DNA from: an uncultured Eubacteriales bacterium
GTDB taxonomy: Bacteria > Acidobacteriota > Aminicenantia > Aminicenantales > JAFGAV01
DNA: 28,026 nucleotides
Reading direction: 5' to 3'
Assembly (NCBI GenBank): GCA_964521765.1
Contig: CAZFTV010000002.1
Location: forward strand, 9,330-37,355
Shown here piece by piece: positions 4,272-22,547 of the stretch (its first letter is position 1; each line of letters opens with the position of its first letter). Below the pieces are notes generated by a model. The model had not been told where the DNA came from, did no database searches, and saw only the letters and a list, made by a program, of their open reading frames with translations. The position numbers and the translations under genes were made by a program.

Positions 4272-5116
4272 AAAAACAAGCTTTGGGGAAGGGCATAAGA
4301 GCTTTCGTTCCGGAGGAATTCGGCATCCTGAAAGACGAGAGGTTGGCGGACGTTCCCATCGGCCAGGTCAGGCCGAATCCCCTGCAGCCTCGCAAGAATT
4401 TCGACGAAGCGGCCATCCAGGATCTCGCCCGGTCGATCAAGACATCCGGAGTCCTACAGCCGATCGTCGTCGTCCCCGAGGGCGATCATTACAAAATCAT
4501 CATCGGCGAGCGGCGCTTCAGGGCGGCTCAACGCGCCGGCCTGCCGAAGGTGCCGGTGCTGATCCGCAACGTGCCCAAGGCCCAGCAGGTCGAGATATCG
4601 CTGGTTGAGAACCTCCAGCGGGAAGACCTCAACCCAATCGAAATCGCCCAGGCCTATGAGCAGCTCGTGAAAGAGCTCGGCTTGACCCAGCAGGAGCTGG
4701 CGGACAAGGTCGGGATGGACCGGAGTACGGTGGCCAATTTCCTCAGGCTTATCAGGCTGCCCGAAGAAGTCCAGGAGATGCTGGCTATGAACAAGCTGTC
4801 CATGGGCCATGCCCGCGCCCTGTTGCCCCTCGACGACCCGGGCCAACAGCTGCAGCTGGCCCGGCAGATCGTCGCCGGCAGCCTTTCCGTCAGGGAAGTG
4901 GAAGCCCGTGTCCAGGGCGGAAGAAAAAAGTCTCCCGCGAGAAAAAAAAGCGGCATCGACCCGGAGCTGAGAGCCTTGCAGGAGAGCCTGGTCCGTGTCC
5001 TGGGGACGAAGGTGGAAATCGCCGGCAGCCGCCGGCGGGGCCACCTACGGGTGTATTATTTTTCTCTCGACGAACTCAACCGAATCTATGAACTCATAAA
5101 AGGAGTGCGTTCATGA
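4268..5116 (+). CDS. parB: Chromosome partitioning protein ParB (Spo0J)
   Basis: N-terminal LGKG ParA-interaction peptide, NPLQPRK, GVLQP, GERRFRA box, ENLQREDL and an HTH region. ATGA overlap with parA. Confidence 0.97.
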
Positions 5117-9645: not shown

Positions 9646-11022
9646 GTGAACGTCAATCCCGCCATTTTCAGGGAATACGATATCCGGGGCATCGTGGATA
9701 AGGACCTGACGCCCGGGGTCGTCGAGGCCCTGGGCCGGGGGCTGGGCACCTATTTCCGGCGGCACAACGCCCGTGAGGTCGCGGTGGGCCGGGACGTGCG
9801 CCTGAGCTCGCCCTCCTATTTCGTGGCGCTGGCCCGCGGGCTCCTGTCCACGGGCTGCGACGTCGTGGACCTGGGCGTCGTCCCCACGCCCCTGCTCTAC
9901 TTCGCCATCTTCAACAACAGGAAGGAAGCGGGGGTCATGATCACGGGCTCCCACAACCCGCCCGAGTACAACGGCTTCAAGGTCATGCTGGGCGAGGAGG
10001 CCGTCTTCGGCCCCATGATCCAGGAAATCGGCGGGATCGTCCGGAGCGGCGATTTCGTCGAGGACCGCCCGGGCCGGCGCTCGACGCTCGACGTCGTGCC
10101 CGAGTATCAGGCTCATCTTCTGGGGAACCTCAAGCTCGAGCGGCCGCTCAAGGTCGTCGTGGACGCCGGCAACGGGACGGGAGGTGTCGTGGCCGTCCCG
10201 ATCTTTGAGAAGCTGGGCGCCGAAGTCATCCCCCTCTTCTGCGACATGGACGGCCGATTCCCCAACCATCATCCCGACCCGACCCTGCCCGAGGCCATGC
10301 AGCACCTCATCCGCAAAGTGGCCGAAACGGGCGCCGAGGCCGGCATCGCCTTCGACGGCGACGCCGACCGCATCGGCGTCGTGGACGACAGGGGGAAAAT
10401 CCTCTGGGGCGACCAGCTCATGATCCTCTTCGCCCGCGACATCCTGTCGAGGCAGCCCGGGGCGGCGGTCATCGCCGAGGTCAAGTCGAGCAAGCTCCTC
10501 TTCGAGGAGGTGGCCAGGCTCGGCGGACGTCCGATCATGTGGAAGACGGGCCACTCCCTGATCAAGAAGAAGATCAAGGAGGAGCGGGCGGCCCTGGCCG
10601 GCGAGATGAGCGGGCACATTTTTTTCGCCGACCGCTACTTCGGGTTCGACGACGCCATCTACGCCTCGGGCCGGCTGCTCGAGATCCTGTCCCGGACGCG
10701 GCGCAGTCTTTCGGAGCTCCTGTCCGACCTGCCGGTCACCTACAGCACCCCAGAGATCCGGGTCTACGCCTCGGACGAGGTCAAGTTCAAGATCGTGGAC
10801 GAGGTGAGGCGGGCGCTCGCCGGCCGCTACCCGGTCGTCGACATCGACGGCGTCCGGGCCGAGTTGCCCGGCGGCTGGGCCCTGGTGCGGGCCTCGAACA
10901 CCCAGGCGGTGCTCGTCATGCGCTTCGAGGCCGAGACGCCGGAGGCTTTGGCCGCCATCCAGAAAGAGGTCAAGGCGGAGGTCGAGGCGGTCATCAAGGG
11001 GCTGAACGGCGGCGGAGCATGA
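9646..11022 (+). CDS. Phosphomannomutase/phosphoglucomutase
   Basis: FREYDIRG, phosphoserine loop ITGSHNP, metal loop FDGDADR, sugar loop GEMSGH, VRASNT. GTG start. Confidence 0.94.
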   Translation: MNVNPAIFREYDIRGIVDKDLTPGVVEALGRGLGTYFRRHNAREVAVGRDVRLSSPSYFVALARGLLSTGCDVVDLGVVPTPLLYFAIFNNRKEAGVMITGSHNPPEYNGFKVMLGEEAVFGPMIQEIGGIVRSGDFVEDRPGRRSTLDVVPEYQAHLLGNLKLERPLKVVVDAGNGTGGVVAVPIFEKLGAEVIPLFCDMDGRFPNHHPDPTLPEAMQHLIRKVAETGAEAGIAFDGDADRIGVVDDRGKILWGDQLMILFARDILSRQPGAAVIAEVKSSKLLFEEVARLGGRPIMWKTGHSLIKKKIKEERAALAGEMSGHIFFADRYFGFDDAIYASGRLLEILSRTRRSLSELLSDLPVTYSTPEIRVYASDEVKFKIVDEVRRALAGRYPVVDIDGVRAELPGGWALVRASNTQAVLVMRFEAETPEALAAIQKEVKAEVEAVIKGLNGGGA

Positions 11023-12116
11023 AACTCGACATCCGCGTGGTTGTCATGGCCGGCGGGAGCGGCACGCGTTTCTGGCCGCTCAGCCGCGGAAGCCGGCCCA
11101 AGCAGTTTCTGCCCATCGCGGGCGAAAGGTCCATGCTGGAGGAGACCGTGGAGCGGCTCCTTCCGCTCGTTCCGGCGCGGAAGATTTTCACCGTGGCCGA
11201 TGCGGCCAAGACCCGGACGATCCGCCGGCTGCTCCCGGGATTCCCGGCCCGGAACCTCCTTGTCGAGCCCGAGGGCCGGAACACGGCGCCATCGCTCGTC
11301 CTGGCCACGGCGCGCATCCACCTGGACAATCCCGAGGCGGTCGTCGTCGTCCTACCCTCGGACCACCTCATCCGGCCGGCCGATCTCTTCCGGAGACAGC
11401 TCGAGGCCGGGTGCCGGGCCGCGGCCGAGCGAGGAGTCCTGGTCACCTTCGGCATCCCTCCCACGTTTCCCTCCACGGGCTACGGCTATATAAAAGCCGC
11501 GGCCAAACCCGCGGGCCGGGTCAATGGCTTCCCTTATCATGAAGTCCGGTCTTTCGAGGAAAAGCCGCCGCTCGAAAGAGCCCGCCGGTTCGTCCGCGCC
11601 GGGACCTACACCTGGAACTCGGGCATGTTCATCTGGCGGGCGGACGTCTTCGCCGGGAAGCTGAAAAGGCATTCTCCGGAGTACGCCCCCGGCTGGGACA
11701 GAATGCTCGCCGCTCTCCGGAAGGATGACCGTCGGGCGGCGAACGCCGCGTTCAAGACGATGCCGGCAAAATCCATCGACTACGCCCTTATGGAGAAGGC
11801 TTCCGGCGTGCTCGTCCTTCCGGCCCGTTTCGGCTGGTCGGACGTCGGCGCCTGGTCGTCGCTCCTCGACGTCTGGCCCCGCGACGAGCGGGGCAATACC
11901 GCGCGCGGCGAGATCCTGGCCCTGGATGCCTCGGGGAACCTCATTTACAACCCGGGCCGGTTCACGGCCCTGATCGGCGTCGATAATCTCATCGTCGTCG
12001 AGACGGGCGACGCCCTGCTCGTCTGCCGCCGCGACCAGGACCAGCGCGTCAAGGACGTCCTCGCGAATCTCAAGCGCCGCAAGAAGGGGTCGCGTCTACA
12101 CTTTCCACTTTTTTAA
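11019..12116 (+). CDS. manC: Mannose-1-phosphate guanylyltransferase, monofunctional (start re-assigned to ATG 11019)
   Basis: MAGGSGTRFWPLSR..PKQFL, EPEGRNTAP, PSDH, WNSGMF, SIDYALME, GWSDVGAW. No C-terminal cupin domain. ATGA overlap with the mutase. Confidence 0.93.
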   Translation: MKLDIRVVVMAGGSGTRFWPLSRGSRPKQFLPIAGERSMLEETVERLLPLVPARKIFTVADAAKTRTIRRLLPGFPARNLLVEPEGRNTAPSLVLATARIHLDNPEAVVVVLPSDHLIRPADLFRRQLEAGCRAAAERGVLVTFGIPPTFPSTGYGYIKAAAKPAGRVNGFPYHEVRSFEEKPPLERARRFVRAGTYTWNSGMFIWRADVFAGKLKRHSPEYAPGWDRMLAALRKDDRRAANAAFKTMPAKSIDYALMEKASGVLVLPARFGWSDVGAWSSLLDVWPRDERGNTARGEILALDASGNLIYNPGRFTALIGVDNLIVVETGDALLVCRRDQDQRVKDVLANLKRRKKGSRLHFPLF

Positions 12117-12229
12117 TCGGCCAACTTTCTGCCTCGAAATAAACCTCGCCGATCATTTGTGTCCCAGGATTTTCCGGGGCTCCTATTTGTCAAGCACTTA
12201 TGAATAGTGGAAAGTGTAGACGCGACCCC
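12086..12229. mobile_element. 144-bp MITE-like element with perfect 24-bp terminal inverted repeats
   Basis: GGGGTCGCGTCTACACTTTCCACT (12086-12109) and its exact reverse complement AGTGGAAAGTGTAGACGCGACCCC (12206-12229). The 96-bp interior has no ORF. Confidence 0.8.
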
Positions 12230-12241
12230 GTCTTCTATTGC

Positions 12242-14620
12242 CTAGTTATTCTCTTTCTTCTTCCGGGTTAATTCGAAACTCACCGTAACCGTTGAGGGGA
12301 TTCCAAGATGGCTTAAAAGGGTATCAATGCCGGTGGCAGCATAGAAGTTTTCAGAATCATGCGTTCCCTCAGATCCGTCACCCCTGAATGTCCTCGATCC
12401 GAAGATACCGTCTTTCGAAGCTTTTCCCGTGATAATGAAAGCGCCGCTCATTAAGCCGCGATAATCACAAGTTCCTATATGACCTTTGACATGATACACT
12501 CTTTCCTCTAACCAGTATTGAGGCATGGGATGGCGTTCACTTTCTCTGCAAACAGGCTTGCCGTTTTCGTAATCAATGTCGCGGAATGTCACGAGGCCCC
12601 CGGTTGGCGGGAGCAAGTGGATGTCAATGTATATCTGGTAGGTATCCTCTGCATCGACGGCCAGAGATACGTGCGCAAATGCCTTGCCGGGCACATGGGG
12701 AACGGATTCCCCCTCGGGCACCTTCTCCATAAGGCCGGAACCGCCAAAATCTGCCTGCTCGGTAACGCATCCTTCAGTTGTTGATGAGTAGCGATATTCT
12801 ATCAGGTTATAGGAACCGGAGAGAGATTGCATTTCATAATCAAATGCAGTCTCTTTGTTCTTTTCAAAGTCGACGATGATACGGACTCGCTCCTTGAAAG
12901 CCAATTTAATAGTATTATTGTCTATGCTGTGTTTGCCGTCGACGTCTCGGGTAAAGGTAATCGTGCCGGACCATTCACTGCATGGCTCGGAAGAAGGATC
13001 GATTTCAATCTTGCCGTCGAGGGTTGATTCGCTTCCATTGCTTACAATAAGCGTCAGGTTGACAAGTCTCTCATCAGCCTTGTCCAGGCAGAAGGTAATC
13101 TTGGACTCGCTGCTCCAGTGGCGCACCTCCGCACTTCTCCCTTCGATCGTGACAATGGCATCCACGCCGGCTCCAGGTCTGCTGATTATGTCCTCGAGAA
13201 CAACTGTTATCTTGTGAATGCCCTCGCCGACAGGGACACCGACATAGTAGTAACGGGCAGCGAGACGCTGAATAGGTTCGTCGATTGTCTCTTTTTTGTC
13301 TTTTGAAAGCTCGATTTCTTTTGTGAGTGAAGGGCTAAGATCGGGAAATTCCGGGTCAGGCTGCGAATAGGTCGGACTCACCGGCTCAAAGTTCCAGTTG
13401 CGGAGAGCAAATTCTCGGAAGTTGTCCTTGAGTGAAAAGACTGCATCGACGGCCTTAATGCCGTCTTTCGTCCTTGCGGACTCCCAGACCTGACGAACAA
13501 TACCGTCGTTTCTTTCCATCTGGGCAAAGAGAAAAAAAAGATATGAGCCGTATTGTTGTATCCTCACTCCTGAATATGCTTGGATGGACTCTCCTTTGCT
13601 GTCCAGGGGCTGATTGAGCGCATTGAAAAAGTACGGAAGAGTCCTATGCACATCCCCCAGATCATCTCCCAACATCTGCAAGACCCGGAATTCCGCCCAG
13701 GTAGCCGTTGCTTCCATCAGCCAACTGTTTTCCATTCGGTCATAGCTGAATTGGCTCACGTGGAACAGTTCATGAGCAAGGGTCCCGTTAAGGGAGCTGC
13801 CGCTGGCGGAGGAATCGATGACAACATATCCGCTCGAAGACAGAAAATCTTCCGGATCGCATGGGATAGCCCATCCAGATGCTCCAATGAAAGTGCATCC
13901 TTTGGTCGATCGGTTGCGCAGGCAGTCCCGCATACGGGGATTCCTCCCGCCCAGAGGCACAACATAAATATCAATGGCTTGGTCAGGGTTTATGAGTGAC
14001 GACGGGTCTCCTGGCTTATCCGGCAACGGTTCATTAATAAGGTTGATAAGAAGCGGCCAGATCGCTTCTACCCTGCCGGCATAGGTCAACGAGGCGTTTC
14101 TTGGATCGCGTCGCGTCCAGATTCTGACTTTGCCCCCAACCGCTGTCTCCGAACTCCAACCTTCATCCGCCCATAAAGCCGGAACCGCAGCGGCGAAATC
14201 AACATATCCCGATTGGGGTTTATTGAAGATGCTGATGGGATCGTTGGGGCGCGCCATGAAGGGTGCCAGTTCTTTGAGCGCAGATTGGCTCAGCTGATCC
14301 CTTTTTGCCTTGACCTCTGCAAAAATGACCGTAGCGGCATCCAGGTCTATGACATCCCTTTTATACTTCTCGGGCAAACGGGGATCACTGAATACCGCAT
14401 ACGTACGATAGAGCAAAGAAGTTTCATAATCGATCTCCTTTGCCGCCAGCGCTTTGGCGATGAGATCCTCGCTTGTGATAATTTGTTTGGTTTCGACCTT
14501 CTTTTGGGCTTTTGTTGATTCCTGTGGCTTAGGGCCAAACACTCCCTTCAACCAAAAGCCGATTGCAGCGAGAGCTATAAGAACGACAACCGCAACGATT
14601 GCATTTCGTATGCGTTTCAT
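12242..14620 (-). CDS. N-terminally membrane-anchored putative zinc metallopeptidase (HExxH...E), 792 aa
   Basis: Basic N-terminus plus hydrophobic segment (MKRIRNAIVAVVVLIALAAIGFWL), TLAHELFHVSQFSY followed by WLMEATATWAE (gluzincin-like third ligand), beta-rich C-terminus. AAGGAG RBS; AT-richer than the core genes. Confidence 0.7.
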   Translation of the reverse strand: MKRIRNAIVAVVVLIALAAIGFWLKGVFGPKPQESTKAQKKVETKQIITSEDLIAKALAAKEIDYETSLLYRTYAVFSDPRLPEKYKRDVIDLDAATVIFAEVKAKRDQLSQSALKELAPFMARPNDPISIFNKPQSGYVDFAAAVPALWADEGWSSETAVGGKVRIWTRRDPRNASLTYAGRVEAIWPLLINLINEPLPDKPGDPSSLINPDQAIDIYVVPLGGRNPRMRDCLRNRSTKGCTFIGASGWAIPCDPEDFLSSSGYVVIDSSASGSSLNGTLAHELFHVSQFSYDRMENSWLMEATATWAEFRVLQMLGDDLGDVHRTLPYFFNALNQPLDSKGESIQAYSGVRIQQYGSYLFFLFAQMERNDGIVRQVWESARTKDGIKAVDAVFSLKDNFREFALRNWNFEPVSPTYSQPDPEFPDLSPSLTKEIELSKDKKETIDEPIQRLAARYYYVGVPVGEGIHKITVVLEDIISRPGAGVDAIVTIEGRSAEVRHWSSESKITFCLDKADERLVNLTLIVSNGSESTLDGKIEIDPSSEPCSEWSGTITFTRDVDGKHSIDNNTIKLAFKERVRIIVDFEKNKETAFDYEMQSLSGSYNLIEYRYSSTTEGCVTEQADFGGSGLMEKVPEGESVPHVPGKAFAHVSLAVDAEDTYQIYIDIHLLPPTGGLVTFRDIDYENGKPVCRESERHPMPQYWLEERVYHVKGHIGTCDYRGLMSGAFIITGKASKDGIFGSRTFRGDGSEGTHDSENFYAATGIDTLLSHLGIPSTVTVSFELTRKKKENN

Positions 14621-14835
14621 TTCAGGCTCCTTAGGGTTCTGTTCGGTCTACTAATTGCTTCGGCCAAAAGGGCTTTCGAGTATTGAAGTGCTCGCTGACC
14701 TGCCCCCTAATATGGTACCAGCCCTCGAGCGATATTTTCAATCGCCGGACCCTCACCCGAAAACTGGTCCAGCCAAAAGTGAAGTTATTTGGCTTTGATT
14801 CAATGCATATTTATCCGCGAACCGGCTCGGTGTCA

Positions 14836-14874
14836 AGTCTCCGATCAAACTGTGGAGGCGAAGCACACGGCGGC
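14836..14874 (+). repeat. 39-bp direct repeat, copy 1
   Basis: AGTCTCCGATCAAACTGTGGAGGCGAAGCACACGGCGGC, identical to 17854-17892. Confidence 0.95.
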
Positions 14875-15674
14875 GGCCGTTGGTCATGATGAACTCGGCC
14901 GCCCGGCCGATTTTAAACCTTCACCCCACCTCCATTTCCTGGTGACCGAGGGTGGGGTGGACGAGGCGGGGATCTTCCATAAGATCCCCCAAATCGACGA
15001 CTTACAGCTTGAGGAGCTTTTCGCTCGGGAGGTGTTGTCCGATCTTGTGCGCAAAGAGTTGCTGATCCCGGAATGGACCGAGAGAGGATTCTATCCTGGC
15101 GGCACACAGGCTTCTCAGTCCATAGCTTGGTTCGGGCCACGACCAAGCCGGTGGCCGAGCGGGTGGGCAAATATATGATCCGGCCGCTCTTGGCCCTGGA
15201 CCGCCTTTCTTTCGTAGAGCCTGCGGGCAAGGTGGGATACCGATATGGCCAAGGCGCCCGCGAGACCGAGAAGATGGGTTATTTGGAGTTCATCGCGCGG
15301 GTCACCTCTCATATTCCCGATAAGGGCCAGGTCATGGTCCGCAACTATGGCCTCTACGCCAATGCTCATCGAGGGAAAATCAGGAAGGCGAGCTTGACGG
15401 CTTTTCCCCTCCGGATCGTCGAGGAAAAGCTTCGGCGCGTCCCCTCCAAGGGCTGGGGGCCATGATCCGGAAGGTCTACGAGATCGACCCGATGGTCTGC
15501 CTCCGGTGCGGTGGCACGATGAAGGTCGTCGCCTTCCTCACGGAGCACGTTGTCGTAGACCGGATCATCAGCCACATGAAGCTGATATTCATTGCCGACA
15601 AGCCCCCGCCGCCCCGGGCCGCCTTCCAGGAATATCTTCTAGACGCTGATCCCCAGGTCGATTATATTTTGTGA
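14875..15674 (+). pseudogene. IS91/ISCR-like rolling-circle (HUH) transposase remnant, 5'-truncated and frameshifted
   Basis: HUH motif PHLHFLVTEGG, then ERILSWRH.GFSV, KYMIRP, LEFIARVTSHIPDKGQVMVRNYGLYAN, and the tail MIRKVYEIDPMVCLRCGG.MK. Frameshifts: an extra AG in GAGAGAGG near 15081-15088 and a G-run at about 15455-15459. The N-terminal Zn-binding domain is absent. Confidence 0.88.
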
Positions 15675-15762
15675 GTGTTTTCAGGGGGGAAATGTTTGTC
15701 TGATTTCCGCCTCCTCGGGCGCCCCTGACGCTCTCCTGCTTTATCCCACAAATCAAGTCCTT

Positions 15763-15871
15763 CTTGACAGGTTCCAGACCCCCCTTGTGTATTCTCTTAT
15801 GATGATTGGAGGGGATTCCCGAGGTAATAACGTGTCTGCAAAGCGGCGCAGCAGAAAAAGAATTTCTTATC
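15763..15871 (+). repeat. IS91-like ori-end region, copy A (109 bp)
   Basis: Follows the transposase 3' end and finishes AAAAAGAATTTCTTATC, resembling IS91/ISCR oriIS termini (A/T-TTCCTAT-type, recalled). It aligns without gaps to the reverse complement of 16673-16781 at 77/109 positions. Confidence 0.7.
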
Positions 15872-16598
15872 AATTCTCAGAACGCACTACACGAACATAG
15901 GCGTCGTCGAAAAGAGGGATGCTGACTATATTACCTTCATCGAAGTAAACCACCCACGCATCGAATGGACCATATTGATCACCGGTCCACATATTCTCCT
16001 GAATTCCTATAAAGAGAGGGTCGATGTATAAGTAAAAATTCTTTTTGCTGCTCTCAATCAGCGATGCCCCCTCCTCTAGGGTTGGTAGTCGCCAGTCATG
16101 GTATCCTGCATATCCCTTCTGGTTTAAATTCTCAATCCAATTTCGAGCATCATCAAACGTCTTCCTATCTGAAGACGCCACATGCTGCCACATCAGCCCC
16201 GTGGCATGGTCATTGACAACCAGATCACTATTAATATATTTTCTCTCAAACTTGTTTTTAAACGTCTTTGATTTGTGCCACCTTGAATCATAAAACCCAT
16301 GTTTATTCAGCATGGATTCAACTTCATAAGTTGTCAGATTTTTATATTCGTAACGGAGTCGAGAAGTGGGAATATGAGTCCGAGATTCAAGTTTTGTTTC
16401 TGAAGTTTTATTTTCAAACAAGATGTTTGCTATTAATATAGTTGTTATTACTATTATTATAACTAAAGTTAAAATGAACCACTGTTTTCTAGTTCCGGGT
16501 ATTACAGTTAGCCTTCCTCCACATTTAGGACAGATTTTATAAGGACCACCTGATAGTGTTAAAAAAGGATTTCCACATTTGCTGCAGTGTTGTCCCAT
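15870..16598 (-). CDS. Zinc-ribbon + transmembrane + Lcl C-terminal (DUF1566) domain protein
   Basis: CSKC...CPKC at the N-terminus, TM WFILTLVIIIVITTILIANILF, and DUF1566 motifs VVNDHATGLMWQ, GYAGYHDWRLPTLEE, WVVYF..G and terminal VRVVR. Strongly AT-rich. Confidence 0.85.
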   Translation of the reverse strand: MGQHCSKCGNPFLTLSGGPYKICPKCGGRLTVIPGTRKQWFILTLVIIIVITTILIANILFENKTSETKLESRTHIPTSRLRYEYKNLTTYEVESMLNKHGFYDSRWHKSKTFKNKFERKYINSDLVVNDHATGLMWQHVASSDRKTFDDARNWIENLNQKGYAGYHDWRLPTLEEGASLIESSKKNFYLYIDPLFIGIQENMWTGDQYGPFDAWVVYFDEGNIVSIPLFDDAYVRVVRSEN

Positions 16599-16672
16599 TT
16601 TAAAACCTCTTTATTTCATAAAAAGACACGCCCAAGTTCTCAGGAAAGTCGAAGAGATTCTCTTATAATTTC

Positions 16673-16781
16673 GACAAGCATTTCCTTTTTGGCTGAGCCC
16701 CTTTGAAGCCGCGTAGTTTTCGCGGTCGTCCCCTCCCTCCATCGTGAGGGATTATAAAGGGAGGGGCGGGAACCTGTCAAG
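16673..16781 (-). repeat. IS91-like ori-end region, copy B (109 bp, inverted)
   Basis: The minus strand starts CTTGACAGGTTCC and ends CAAAGGGGCTCAGCCAAAAAGGAAATGCTTGTC. It is colinear with copy A (77/109 identical, no gaps). Confidence 0.7.
16751..16780 (-). promoter_or_regulatory. Consensus sigma70 promoter pointing at the DUF1566 gene
   Basis: The minus strand reads TTGACA-18 bp-TATAAT (both hexamers perfect), about 150 nt upstream of the ATG at 16598. Confidence 0.7.
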
Positions 16782-16785
16782 GACG

Positions 16786-17854
16786 TGAACAGGTCCACTA
16801 CATGGGCAACACTTTCCGTCTGGAGTTGCGTTTCCACTGCCGATAATATTGGTAAGGGGTCAAGTAATCAAGGGACTCGTGCGGCCGGATGCGGTTATAG
16901 GTGTGCTCCCACTCGGCCAGCTGCCGGGTTATGCTCCTCAAGGTCCAGGTCGACGTCGTAAACCTCATAGAGCTCCTCCCCGTGGGTTCGATTCGACCTC
17001 TCCACGTGCCCATTGAGTTTGGGAGACTTGGGCGGAAGGACGAAGAGAGGGATCTTCTTGGCTTGGCATTCCATCTCGAACTGGTCCTTGAACTCTGATC
17101 CGCCATCGATCTGGATGGCCTTGAGAGGAAGTGGGCCGCCTTGAGGCTCGACTGATGCTTATAAGCCCGGATCGCATCGAAACGGCAGACGACATCCCGT
17201 GCCGAGAACTGATATCGGGTCTCGTTGGGCAGGAGCTTGATCTGAACGGTATCGACTTCGACCAGGTCCCCGGGCGCCTCGATCCGATAGTCCTTAGGCT
17301 TCCTTATGGCATAGCGGGGCTTCCTCCGGCGCCTCCGGGCCAGCTTGGCCTGGGTCACGTTCAAGGGCTCGACTAGAACACCGCGGGCTTTGAGCCGGTT
17401 CATCACCCGGCCGACGGTCGAGGCCGAGACCTTGATCCCCTCCCGCCCCAGAAGGACAACCAACTTCTTCTTGCCCCAGCGGGGATATCGGGTCCGCAGT
17501 TCCAGGATCCGCTCCACGACCTCCAACGGCGTCTGAGGCTGTCGAACATGTCGGGGTCGCCGGCTCTCTTCCTCCAGGGTGGTCAGGTCATAAGGGTCGA
17601 ACCTCCGTTTCCAGCGGTAGAAGGTCTTGGGGGAGATGCCGAAGTATCGGCAACTGAGCCTGGCGTTCCGAAGACGGGCATAATGGTCCATCCAGCGGAG
17701 CTTCTTGGCCGCTTCAGCGGAGATCGTCCCCTGGCGGACCAGGGACCGGATGTACTCTGAACCTGGGATTAGGGAGCCGTAAGTCGTTGTCGCCCGTAAA
17801 TACATGGTGCCACCATATTACCCCAGGTGTTTCCCATGTTTCTGGACCTGTTCA
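16786..17854 (-). mobile_element. IS481-family insertion sequence (1069 bp), inactive
   Basis: Imperfect terminal IRs TGAACAGGTCCACTACATGGGCAACAC (16786-16812) and TGAACAGGTCCAGAAACATGGGAAACAC (reverse complement of 17827-17854) enclose one HTH + integrase-core ORF. No target-site duplication is visible. Confidence 0.8.
16798..17805 (-). pseudogene. IS481-family DDE transposase with two compensating frameshifts
   Basis: HTH segments (ISPKTFYRWKRR, PRWGKKKL, SASTVGRV), first Asp LVEVDT and tail YNRIRPHESL are in frame. KAIQIDGGSEF...NGHVER is present only in a shifted frame between about 17123 and 16927. Confidence 0.85.
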
Positions 17855-17892
17855 GTCTCCGATCAAACTGTGGAGGCGAAGCACACGGCGGC
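17854..17892 (+). repeat. 39-bp direct repeat, copy 2
   Basis: Identical to 14836-14874; abuts the IS481 end. Confidence 0.95.
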
Positions 17893-17904
17893 CGGGAGCG
17901 AACC

Positions 17905-17934
17905 TTGACAAGCGGAAACCCTTTCCTGTATGAA
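17905..17934 (+). promoter_or_regulatory. Putative sigma70 promoter of the sdh-Rieske-cytb operon
   Basis: TTGACA at 17905-17910 and a weak -10 (TATGAA, 18-bp spacer). This favours ATG 17960 over 17930 as the sdhC start. Confidence 0.4.
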
Positions 17935-17959
17935 TGGAATCCACGAAGGGAAAACCGAG

Positions 17960-18268
17960 ATGTTCGTCTGGGTCTTTCATCGCGTGACGGGTTTATTGCT
18001 CATCGGCTTCCTGGGCGTCAAGTTCCTGACGTCCTTCTTCCTCATGACCAAGAATGTCAAGCCCGACTGGGCGCTCTTCCTCCACACGAACCCGCTTATC
18101 GACGCGGTGCTCATCGTCAGCGTCGTTTACCACGCCCTCTACGGCTTGCGGACGGTCATCCTCGACCTGGGGCTGCGCCGCGAGAAGCTCCTGTTCTGGA
18201 TCTTCACCATCCTGGGCACCGTCATCAGCGCCGGCTTGCTCGTGCTCTATTTCACCCGGGATTACTGA
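17960..18268 (+). CDS. sdhC: Succinate dehydrogenase/fumarate reductase cytochrome b anchor subunit, 3 TM (alternative start 17930)
   Basis: WVFHRVTG at the start of helix 1, [16 protein letters not shown] (heme His and GLR..D motif) in helix 2, and a third hydrophobic helix. It precedes sdhA. Confidence 0.85.
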
Positions 18269-20853: not shown

Positions 20854-21299
20854 AACTCAAAGCCTCTCTTTTCTCCCGCCGCAAGTTCTTGAACGGCCTC
20901 CTGGCCGGAGGGTTGGGGTCGCTCTTCGCCTCCCTGCTTTTTCCCCTGCTGCGCTCTGTCATCCCGCCTACCAAGGAGCCGGACGAGGTGCGGCTGCCCG
21001 GGGCCGACTTCGACGGCATGGCGCCGGGCGAGGTCCGCGGGTTCTCCTGGGACATCAAGCCCGGCTTCCTGAAAAAGAAAGCCGACGGCGGATGGACGGC
21101 CTTCGTGGGCGTCTGCACTCACCTCGACTGCAACGTCTCCTATCTTGCGGCCGAGAAGAAGTTTTTCTGCGCCTGCCATGACGGCTGGTACGACGAAGAG
21201 GGCCGCAACATCGCCGGCCCGCCGCCCTCGCCGCTTCGGCGGCTGAGCGTGAGCGTCGAGGGCGCCGAGATCGTCATTAAGAAGGAGCCGCCGGCATGA
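20850..21299 (+). CDS. qcrA: Rieske [2Fe-2S] protein of a Rieske/cytochrome b complex (start re-assigned to ATG 20850)
   Basis: Tat motif SRRKFL plus TM anchor, box 1 CTHLDC, box 2 CACHDGWY, and GPPPSPL. ATGA overlaps on both sides. Confidence 0.9.
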   Translation: MKLKASLFSRRKFLNGLLAGGLGSLFASLLFPLLRSVIPPTKEPDEVRLPGADFDGMAPGEVRGFSWDIKPGFLKKKADGGWTAFVGVCTHLDCNVSYLAAEKKFFCACHDGWYDEEGRNIAGPPPSPLRRLSVSVEGAEIVIKKEPPA

Positions 21300-22547
21300 G
21301 CGCCGGGAGCCGTTGGACCGCCTTCCGCCGCTGGCTCGACGAGCGGCTGGGCCTTGAGGCCGTGCTGGGCTTCATGCGGCACAAGACCGTCCCCCGGAGC
21401 GGCCACACGATCTGGATGTACACCGGCAGCGCCATCCTGATTTTCTTCTTCATCCAGGTCGTGACCGGCATCATCCTGGCCTTCTACTACCGGCCGACTC
21501 TCGAGGAGGCGAACGCGAGCATCGCCCGGATCATGACCGACGTCCCCCTGGGCTGGGTCGTGCGCTCGATCCATTCCTGGTCGGCGACCTTCATGATCAC
21601 CTTCGTCTTCATCCACTTGGTCAGCATCTGGCTCCTCAAGTCCTACCGGAAGCCGCGGGAGCTGACCTGGATGAGCGGCGTGCTGCTCCTCTTCTGCTCG
21701 CTCTTCTTCGGGTTCACGGGCTACCTCCTGCCTTGGGACGGCGACCAAAGTGGGCACGGACATCCCGCGGGCCATACCCGTGGTGGGCGATTTCTTCACC
21801 AAACTGCTCCGCGGCGGCGAGGACGTGAGCGGCGAGACGCTCAGCCGCTTCTTCAGCATTCACATCTCGATCTTGCCCCTGGCGCTGTGTGCGGTGCTGG
21901 TCCTTCATGTTTTTCTCATTCAGAAGCTCGGGATGAGCATGCCGCTCGAGGCCGAGGTCAAGAAAAAACGACTGCCCGAGATCCCCTTTTGGCCCAACTT
22001 CGTCTTCCGAGAGGCGGTGCTGTGGCTCGTCCTCTTCGGCGTCCTTCTCAGCCTGGCCGTATTCCTGCCGCAGGGGCTGGGCCGCGCGGCCGATTTGCGC
22101 GCGCCCGCGCCCGAGGGCATCAAGCCGGAGTGGTATTTCCTGTTCCTCTTCCAGACGCTCAAGATCTTCCCGGCGAAAATCTGGTTCCTGAAAGGGGAGA
22201 CCCTGGCCGTGCTGGCCATCCTGGCCGGCGTCCTGTTCTTTTTCTTCATCCCCCTCATCGACAACAAGCCCGCCTCGCGCAAGGGGAAAATCCTGACCGT
22301 CGTCGCCTGGCTGGCCATCATCTACGCCCTGGCCATGTCGGCCTGGAGCCTGGCCGGGCCGAAGCCGGCGGCCGAGGCGGCCGGCTCGTCTCACGAGCTC
22401 GTTGCCGGGCCGCGGAACGCCGGGGAGCGGACAGGGATTTACGTCTTCCTGGCCTGGATGTGGAGCGCGATTATCTTTCTTGTTTTTGTGCTCCGGGCCA
22501 AGGTGAGCGAGGTCGACCGGCTCAACGACGCCGGTTTCTTCGATTGA
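21296..22547 (+). pseudogene. qcrB: Cytochrome b (unsplit b6+IV type) interrupted by a frameshift at 21740
   Basis: WLDERL, QVVTG, RSIHSWSA...IHL, RELTW.SG and GFTGYLLPWD are in one frame. ATKVGTDIP, RFFSIH...LH and KPEWYF are in the +1 frame from 21741. It may be a real pseudogene or a sequence error. Confidence 0.85.

Follow-up and report, generated by a model that had tools for sequence, protein, structure and literature searches.

Insertion sequences (IS) of the IS91 family, such as IS91, IS801 and IS1294, are HUH/Y2 rolling-circle elements whose two ends are unlike each other. In IS91 the terIS end lies upstream and the oriIS end downstream of the transposase gene tnpA, a 5′-CTTG or 5′-GTTC is required immediately beside oriIS, and transfer runs from oriIS to terIS, with DNA beyond terIS being carried along when termination fails (PMC13181058). 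For ISCR1, which belongs to the wider IS91 group, two outward promoters in the 232-bp oriIS region have been shown experimentally to drive the resistance genes that lie downstream (PMC6218425). Here we compare these systems with a locus in a 28,026-nucleotide stretch of contig CAZFTV010000002.1 (the whole stretch analysed, hereafter the window), in which two inverted arms of 109 nucleotides (nt) face an AT-rich gene encoding a DUF1566 protein. A preliminary description had taken the arms for the ori ends of two IS91-like copies and had proposed that rolling-circle elements repeatedly target and delimit the enclosed gene. It is quite probable that the arms are two independent, non-functional remnants of one common Aminicenantes IS which flank a resident accessory gene without forming a transposon, and that one of them donates a promoter to this gene.

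The element from which the arms derive resembles IS91, IS801 and IS1294 in its transposase, which combines the Zn_Tnp_IS91 and Y2_Tnp domains (E 6e-22 and 1e-26 by Pfam in a full-length relative of 423 aa, L104 3479-4750; related loci and contigs are cited here by L numbers) and which passes the NCBIfam cutoff for the model “IS91 family transposase” (transpos_IS91, 209.6 bits against a cutoff of 125). Like the elements of that family it is ~1.7 kb long, has unlike ends, carries a left subterminal hairpin near a GTTC-like sequence and has a conserved region of ~210 nt past the transposase gene. Unlike them, it has no CTTG or GTTC past its right end, occurs in Aminicenantes hosts with many truncated, co-oriented copies, and is distant from plasmid-borne relatives, the nearest of which is 41% identical and the best-matching enterobacterial plasmid copies ~32%.

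The likeness to ISCR1 lies in a predicted outward promoter (in silico here) situated past the transposase stop and before the right end, together with a variable foreign gene on the oriIS side (PMC6218425). As in the complex class 1 integrons that contain ISCR1, the ter side is missing and copies of a direct repeat stand at both edges of the block. These integrons hold ISCR1 and resistance genes between copies of a duplicated 3′ conserved segment (3′-CS); the bracketing repeat found here is 38-45 nt long, with no conserved segment on the kilobase scale. The NCBIfam ISCR clade model also sets the two apart (144.7 against a cutoff of 925), and ISCR1 has two weak promoters where this element has one near-consensus promoter and downstream genes that are not preferentially co-oriented with it. 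A further parallel is with solo IS ends that donate promoters, in that a remnant of ~110 nt with complete -35 and -10 boxes lies 74 nt upstream of a gene; here, however, the predicted promoter lies wholly inside the remnant, forms no hybrid with host DNA and is kept across the IS family.

The arms as right ends of an IS91-family element

The pair of arms was returned by a repeat search as the longest inverted repeat of the entire window. The features that make up the pair and the enclosed gene are the following.

15763-15871 (+) and 16673-16781 (-): inverted-repeat arms, 109 nt, 71% complementary, 801 nt between them
15763-15875 (+): arm A, right-terminal module, arm profile E 1.5e-21
16672-16781 (-): arm B, solo right-terminal module, arm profile E 2e-21
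15870-16598 (-): DUF1566 gene, 242 aa, Pfam Lcl_C (DUF1566) E 3e-21

The ungapped identity of 77/109 that had been reported for the arms was reproduced by our own count, and the conserved blocks quoted with it (CTTGACAGGTTCC, GGAGGGGA and CAAAG.GGC.CAGC..AAAA.GAA.T.CTT.TC) can all be seen in the arm alignment. In 60 dinucleotide-preserving shuffles of positions 14500-18000, the top-scoring inverted match over 109 nt without gaps had 54.2 identities on average (standard deviation 2.2) and at most 60, which the observed 77 clearly exceeds. An independent ENA contig (L001) corresponds to window positions 15549-17125 with 99.7% identity; because it carries the same locus, the arms and the DUF1566 gene cannot have arisen through an error in the present assembly.

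A scan of species-representative genomes with a reconstructed transposase fragment gave 178 relatives, from which 80 loci were kept, almost all of them in metagenome-assembled genomes of Candidatus Aminicenantes and often several to a genome. Sufficient downstream DNA was available for 67 related transposase 3′ ends, and in 37 of these the arm profile detected the module on the same strand, starting 87-132 nt (mostly 96-113) past the transposase stop. A metagenome scan for the arm start produced 102 matches, 101 of them by chance, and the single true further copy (L012) has its arm 96 nt past a transposase remnant of 60 codons, in the same layout as elsewhere. Copies cease to be homologous at the final bases of the arm: two loci, L115 and L116, are 99.8% identical until position 4967, which corresponds to arm profile position ~115, and in the multiple alignment similarity is lost past ...GCGCAGCCGAAAAGnAAATTCTTATC and ~4 subgroup-specific bases. 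The arm is invariably found on the 3′ side of the transposase, and the two ends of the element are unlike, the left end lying ~200 nt upstream of the transposase ATG, where a hairpin (CGTCAACG-CCGG-TTGACG) behind a GTTC-like sequence bears no relation to the arm. By these comparisons the arm is best read as the last ~110 nt on the ori side of an IS91-family element of ~1.7 kb that is abundant in Candidatus Aminicenantes. The assignment to the ori side follows from IS91, which has its oriIS downstream of tnpA, where the arm also sits; “ori” is thus a label given by position alone and denotes a predicted function. With this qualification the identification of both arms as IS91-like ori-side ends is upheld, as the module is indeed linked to IS91-like transposases elsewhere.

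Two other identities for the arm were considered and set aside. It does not encode a small protein, since different subgroups have the terminal box in different reading frames and a 10-nt indel occurs, and Rfam gave only one sub-threshold chance match, located elsewhere. A separate observation concerns the inner edge of the arm. Every arm begins CTTGAC, and in two related loci (L176 7587 and L109 8662) transposase-internal DNA is joined exactly to the CTTG or CTCG at the start of the arm, the spacer having been deleted, so this site may be a preferred breakpoint.

Two decayed copies

Both arms adjoin the wreckage of mobile elements, which comprises the following features.

14916-15674 (+): IS91-family transposase pseudogene, C-terminal ~250 codons, Pfam Y2_Tnp E 9e-13
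15675-15762 (+): spacer of element A, 88 nt, spacer profile match 15641-15772, E 9e-23
16782-16785 (-): CGTC in arm orientation, possible last bit of the spacer of element B, from alignment of the flanks
16786-17854 (-): IS481-family element, Pfam HTH_32 and rve_3, imperfect ~27-bp terminal inverted repeats starting TGAACAGGTCCA

Copy A had been called the natural 3′ end of its transposase, and this holds good. Its spacer matches a profile built from 20 canonical copies, and its arm starts 92 nt past the stop of the transposase remnant, which is the canonical distance. The remnant itself is 74-80% identical at the DNA level to four related loci (L104, L107, L148 and L130, by blastn) and is frameshifted near 15082-15086 and again near 15457-15462. 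It retains an HLHFLV motif at 14927 and has NYGLY at 15343 in place of the YYGLY of its relatives, the tyrosines of which would be the catalytic ones, as in IS91. It has lost ~170 N-terminal codons and the ter end. Given these losses, the two frameshifts and the altered YYGLY motif, element A is dead. At the other edge of element A, the DUF1566 reading frame terminates (stop codon 15870-15872) within the last bases of the arm, which suggests insertion of the element into the very 3′ tip of a pre-existing gene.

Copy B is represented by its arm. Together with copy A and L012 it forms a subgroup with 70-78% pairwise identity, within which B and L012 (78%) are more alike than B and A (70%). An inverted duplication in situ is unlikely for this reason, and two separate copies would have arrived, in line with the claim that the arms come from two diverged element variants.

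It had further been claimed that copy B was cut off by an IS481 end at 16786. An inverted repeat of the IS481 type does start there, and the four bases between it and arm B, CGTC, are those with which the canonical spacer most often ends (~8 of 26 aligned copies), such that the similarity of copy B to canonical elements may run right up to the IS481 edge. The cutting off itself fares less well. Alignment of the ends showed no target-site duplication around IS481 (the flanks read GGACG on one side and GTCTC on the other), and the spacer profile found neither spacer nor transposase remnant on its far side. A simple insertion of IS481 would therefore not have truncated copy B, and the two flanks of IS481 were probably not neighbours originally. 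The rest of element B may have been lost either through a deletion or recombination linked to IS481, or because B was already a solo or truncated end.

The IS481 element is itself in decay. The transposase open reading frame (ORF) at 16798-17805 encodes 335 aa, its middle appears to be frameshifted with the rve core gone, and it scores 130 bits on the NCBIfam IS481 model, under the cutoff of 224. The terminal sequence of this element, TGAACAGGTCC, resembles the start of the arm, TTGACAGGTTCC.

The enclosed gene and a predicted promoter pointing at it

The DUF1566 protein has N-terminal zinc-ribbon-like CxxC pairs, then a hydrophobic stretch and then the C-terminal Lcl_C/DUF1566 domain. The gene is AT-rich, as had been noted, with a GC content of 0.32-0.46 over its region against 0.55-0.62 nearby. 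Its closest homologues are at most 50% identical and, judged from the proteins with genomic contexts left aside, show nothing that would mark them as recurrent IS91 cargo. In several homologues (P0002, P0007, P0011, P0031 and P0043) the Lcl_C/DUF1566 domain is fused to a caspase (Peptidase_C14) or TIR domain, and such exchange of domain partners is characteristic of conflict or signalling proteins.

The start codon of the gene lies 74 nt downstream of the end of arm B, and the arm holds a feature that bears on its expression. Within the first 35 nt, 24 of 28 arms have TTGACA, followed by a sequence-variable spacer of 16-18 nt (nearly always 17 or 18) and a -10 box of the form TATnnT. This pattern of conservation is that of a predicted outward-facing sigma-70-type promoter, of which the two arms in the window carry one version each.

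16751-16780 (-): consensus promoter in arm B, TTGACA-18 nt-TATAAT, 12/12 positions, aimed at the DUF1566 gene
15764-15793 (+): weaker promoter in arm A, TTGACA at 15764-15769, 18-nt spacer, TGTATT at 15788-15793, antisense to the 3′ end of the DUF1566 gene

The arm B version is the top site in 15600-16900, where the scan gave 10 sites against 2.2 expected and found no comparable site between arm B and the DUF1566 gene. It lies ~150 nt from the ATG of that gene, which is preceded by a Shine-Dalgarno-like AAAGAGG. Since a perfect consensus points at the start codon, the IS remnant probably drives transcription of the DUF1566 gene, while the version in arm A would yield antisense transcription. 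Because the promoter is kept across the IS family, it probably serves the element itself.

A probable history: a resident gene between two remnants

Taken together, these features can be arranged into a simple history. Element A (+) would have inserted at the 3′ tip of a resident, AT-rich DUF1566 gene and supplied its stop codon, and it would afterwards have lost its 5′ half and gained its frameshifts. Element B (-) would have landed 74 nt upstream of that gene and been left as a solo end abutting IS481. The order of these events is conjectural.

Several findings sit uneasily with this account or with the identity of the arm on which it depends. The narrow arm profile detected no arm at 30 of the 67 related transposase ends, most of which belong to more distant transposases. 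IS91 demands CTTG or GTTC beside oriIS, and in the multiple alignment the bases past the arm end vary among copies with no conserved CTTG or GTTC; CTTG instead opens the arm, at its inner start. RNAalifold predicted no pairs on 22 arms, and the single-strand DNA folds of the arms (z from +1.1 to -3.0) contain only short, non-aligned stems of 4-7 bp, with no conserved hairpin emerging from either. By crude ORF calls in the related loci, the longest ORF past the arm is co-oriented with the promoter in 17 cases and opposite in 14, so a general role of the promoter in driving genes is unsupported. Finally, the whole block is bracketed by a direct repeat of 38-45 nt that two simple insertions do not account for.

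A direct repeat and a variable neighbourhood

This direct repeat, termed D1, and the sequences around it are laid out as follows.

12242-14620 (-): 792-aa gene, weak, sub-cutoff similarity to an HExxH metalloprotease model
14831-14874: D1-left, TGTCAAG plus 37-38 nt (TCTCCGATCAAACTGTGGAGGCGAAGCACACGGCGGC), left of the truncated IS91 copy, from the repeat search
14875-14915: 41 nt between D1-left and the transposase homology, which begins at ~14916-14927 by blastn
17855-17892: D1-right, the second 38-nt copy, immediately right of IS481, from the repeat search
17904-17935 (+): conserved sdhC promoter region, CTTGACAAGC ... TATGAAT, the first right-side host sequence in common with relatives

The order of features along the window is thus the 792-aa gene, D1-left, 41 nt, transposase, spacer, arm A, DUF1566 gene, arm B, 4 nt, IS481, D1-right and sdhCAB.

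D1 is an exact direct repeat of 38 nt, or 44-45 nt when TGTCAAG is included, and it brackets the whole IS-laden block of 3 kb. D1-right is a continuation of the end of arm B (...CCTGTCAAG), interrupted by IS481 and four bases, and both copies of D1 abut CTTGACA. A blastn-short search found D1 in none of the 80 related loci.

A number of possible identities for D1 were pursued and rejected. It is neither a spacer nor a terIS of the family, the spacer profile and blastn-short on all loci having returned nothing. No third, degenerate arm lies beside D1-left, whether sought with the arm profile at maximum sensitivity or by global alignment against shuffles. A remnant of an OmpA gene was sought in D1 and the left neighbourhood with tblastn, which gave nothing, and D1 is not conserved host DNA upstream of sdhC, as it is not conserved in three relatives (L184, L185 and L186) whose SdhA proteins are 86-91% identical.

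Comparison with relatives sets limits to the variable stretch. On the right, homology upstream of sdhC starts at the promoter -35 (17904), with homology to sdhC itself from 17960. On the left, ~210 nt of non-coding DNA separate the 792-aa gene from D1-left, and homology upstream of the 792-aa gene ends ~70-80 nt from its ATG, where relatives have an OmpA-family gene. In two of these relatives (L187 and L188) the OmpA-family gene precedes the homologue of the 792-aa protein (74-79% identical); the window is without that gene, and its 792-aa gene adjoins sdhCAB. As the upstream OmpA-family gene is missing and sdhCAB is the new neighbour, the whole 792-aa gene has been relocated. Farther out, a manC-like gene (11019-12098) and sdhCAB are syntenic with L184, where the interval between them consists of five entirely different genes. 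Positions ~14700-17904 match nothing in either set of relatives and form a lineage-specific, rearranged and IS-riddled stretch between conserved host genes. Exact-protein look-ups for empty or alternative sites, made with SdhC, SdhA, SdhB, the 792-aa protein and the IS481 transposase, returned no records.

Some further features lie outside the stretch. A 32-nt inverted repeat (12081-12112 and 12203-12234, 94% complementary, 90 nt between) sits between the ends of the manC-like and 792-aa genes, at the left border of the variable interval; it may be either a terminator or a short repeat element. At 21296-22541 the cytochrome b homology to L184 runs in two frames, split at ~21741, which is due to either a frameshift or a sequencing error; in the ORF list the N-terminal part of cytochrome b is fused with the downstream URO-D gene as one ORF of 754 aa.

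Alternative origins of the block

The D1 bracket invites a comparison with ISCR1-like capture. A copy A without its ter end would have replicated through its left flank to give a circle holding A, the DUF1566 gene and end B, and this circle would have integrated through a short shared sequence, leaving the repeats of 38-45 nt. The topology does fit, as the block reads repeat, 5′-truncated IS91-type element, ori end with outward promoter, foreign gene and repeat. The precedents exist as well: the variable region of ISCR1 lies on the oriIS side, beyond a 232-bp oriIS region with outward promoters (PMC6218425), and failed termination in the IS91 family moves adjacent DNA (PMC13181058). Against this, neither a donor nor an empty site was found, D1 being absent from the 80 related loci and unconserved in the relatives on both sides, and capture would need a prior homology of 45 nt at the target. 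At its junction D1-right also differs, with four additional bases and an IS481, and the position of the DUF1566 stop codon inside arm A fits insertion into a resident gene better than the closure of a circle. We consider this origin unlikely. It is similarly doubtful that the block 14831-17892 would be an ISCR1-style capture outside Proteobacteria, integrated upstream of sdhCAB; linked to it is the idea that solo right ends of ~110 nt, cut at the internal CTTG, could act as mobile promoter cassettes.

Slightly less probable again is that the arm is no part of the IS. It would then be an independent repeat of ~110 nt that serves as a landing site, with the element ending at the spacer, inserting 5′ of CTTG and having its true ori nick there. 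The invariant CTTGAC start of the arm recalls the need of IS91 for 5′-CTTG or 5′-GTTC by oriIS (PMC13181058), and junctions fall exactly at CTTG in L176 (7587), in L109 (8662) and at both D1 copies. The arms that stand without a transposase nevertheless keep part of the spacer (~12-14 nt at L110 4366, and more at L108 3974 and L105 752), so that they look like truncated elements and not like empty targets; free arms are also rare. The one true extra copy from the metagenome scan for arm starts is likewise attached to a transposase remnant, and near-identical IS copies have the arm in common and diverge past it.

The proposal of the preliminary description, that rolling-circle elements repeatedly target the gene and that both ori ends jointly delimit or mobilise it as cargo, would predict that convergent pairs are something special. 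That two different copies face a single gene of 0.8 kb does speak for it. Counted over the related loci together with the window, neighbouring arms form 14 tandem pairs, 3 convergent pairs and 1 divergent pair; convergent pairs at 3/18 are not enriched over the 25% expected (binomial p = 0.59), whereas tandem pairs are somewhat enriched (p = 0.03). The genes that convergent pairs enclose are unrelated. The pair in L149 encloses an ORF of 811 aa that looks like an FG-GAP/VCBS-type repeat protein, and the pair in L108 encloses a small membrane-protein ORF and an IS3-like fragment. The arm-gene-arm unit of 1 kb was not encountered a second time in the independent-contig and metagenome scans, the only other record being the same locus. 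The direction of transfer is also wrong for such a role. As IS91 replication leaves oriIS into the element, DNA beyond oriIS is excluded from transfer (PMC13181058), and inward-facing ori ends cannot mobilise what lies between them. Replication would start at the ori end and run away from the enclosed DNA, so the pair would not delimit the gene. With both copies dead and the closest DUF1566 homologues at most 50% identical, the proposal is already largely refuted and very improbable. The pair is most likely no transposon and involves no mechanistic delimiting of the gene.

The same survey of arms yielded observations on how right ends are distributed and on what lies beyond them. Right ends in the same orientation cluster in L158 (544/2413/5539), L113 (1146/3715/7248) and L143 (2348/2614), with 14 tandem pairs against 4 inverted ones overall. 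Many related copies are truncated, and in L143 a short, 5′-truncated copy directly follows another arm. The DNA beyond arm ends averages 5.5 GC points under the locus mean and is lower in 28 of 35 cases. This dip could point to a preference for AT-rich accessory DNA, as repeated targeting of such genes would have it, but it is too weak and too confounded to establish a target preference. Beyond the arms in L012 (3449 onward), L104 (2900-3316) and L115 (5052-5924) there are AAA-ATPase-like, HicB-like antitoxin and small AT-rich ORFs, which to judge by their sequences look like accessory or defence-type genes.

Least probable of all is a non-autonomous element, composite or resembling a miniature inverted-repeat transposable element, with terminal inverted repeats of 109 bp carrying the DUF1566 gene, since the common 13-nt outer terminus of the inverted arms is outweighed by “outer” edges that are internal to a canonical IS (spacer and transposase continue past arm A), by flanks with no target duplication, by the 29% divergence of the arms and by the fact that the sole other record of the 1019-bp unit is the same locus.

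Implications

With two independent remnants beside a resident gene as the preferred reading, the locus is ordinary IS debris, and its inverted repeat requires no new mechanism. Its value lies in part in the comparison that it prompted, which establishes where an uncharacterised IS91-family element, scattered widely through Aminicenantes genomes, begins and ends; these ends aid annotation and explain assembly breaks. The D1 bracket and the recurrent junctions at CTTG offer observations for testing models of cleavage and of one-ended transposition in the IS91 family. Moreover, the predicted right-end promoter is a feature found also in ISCR1, and remnants of such elements could switch on neighbouring genes beyond the clinical Proteobacteria.

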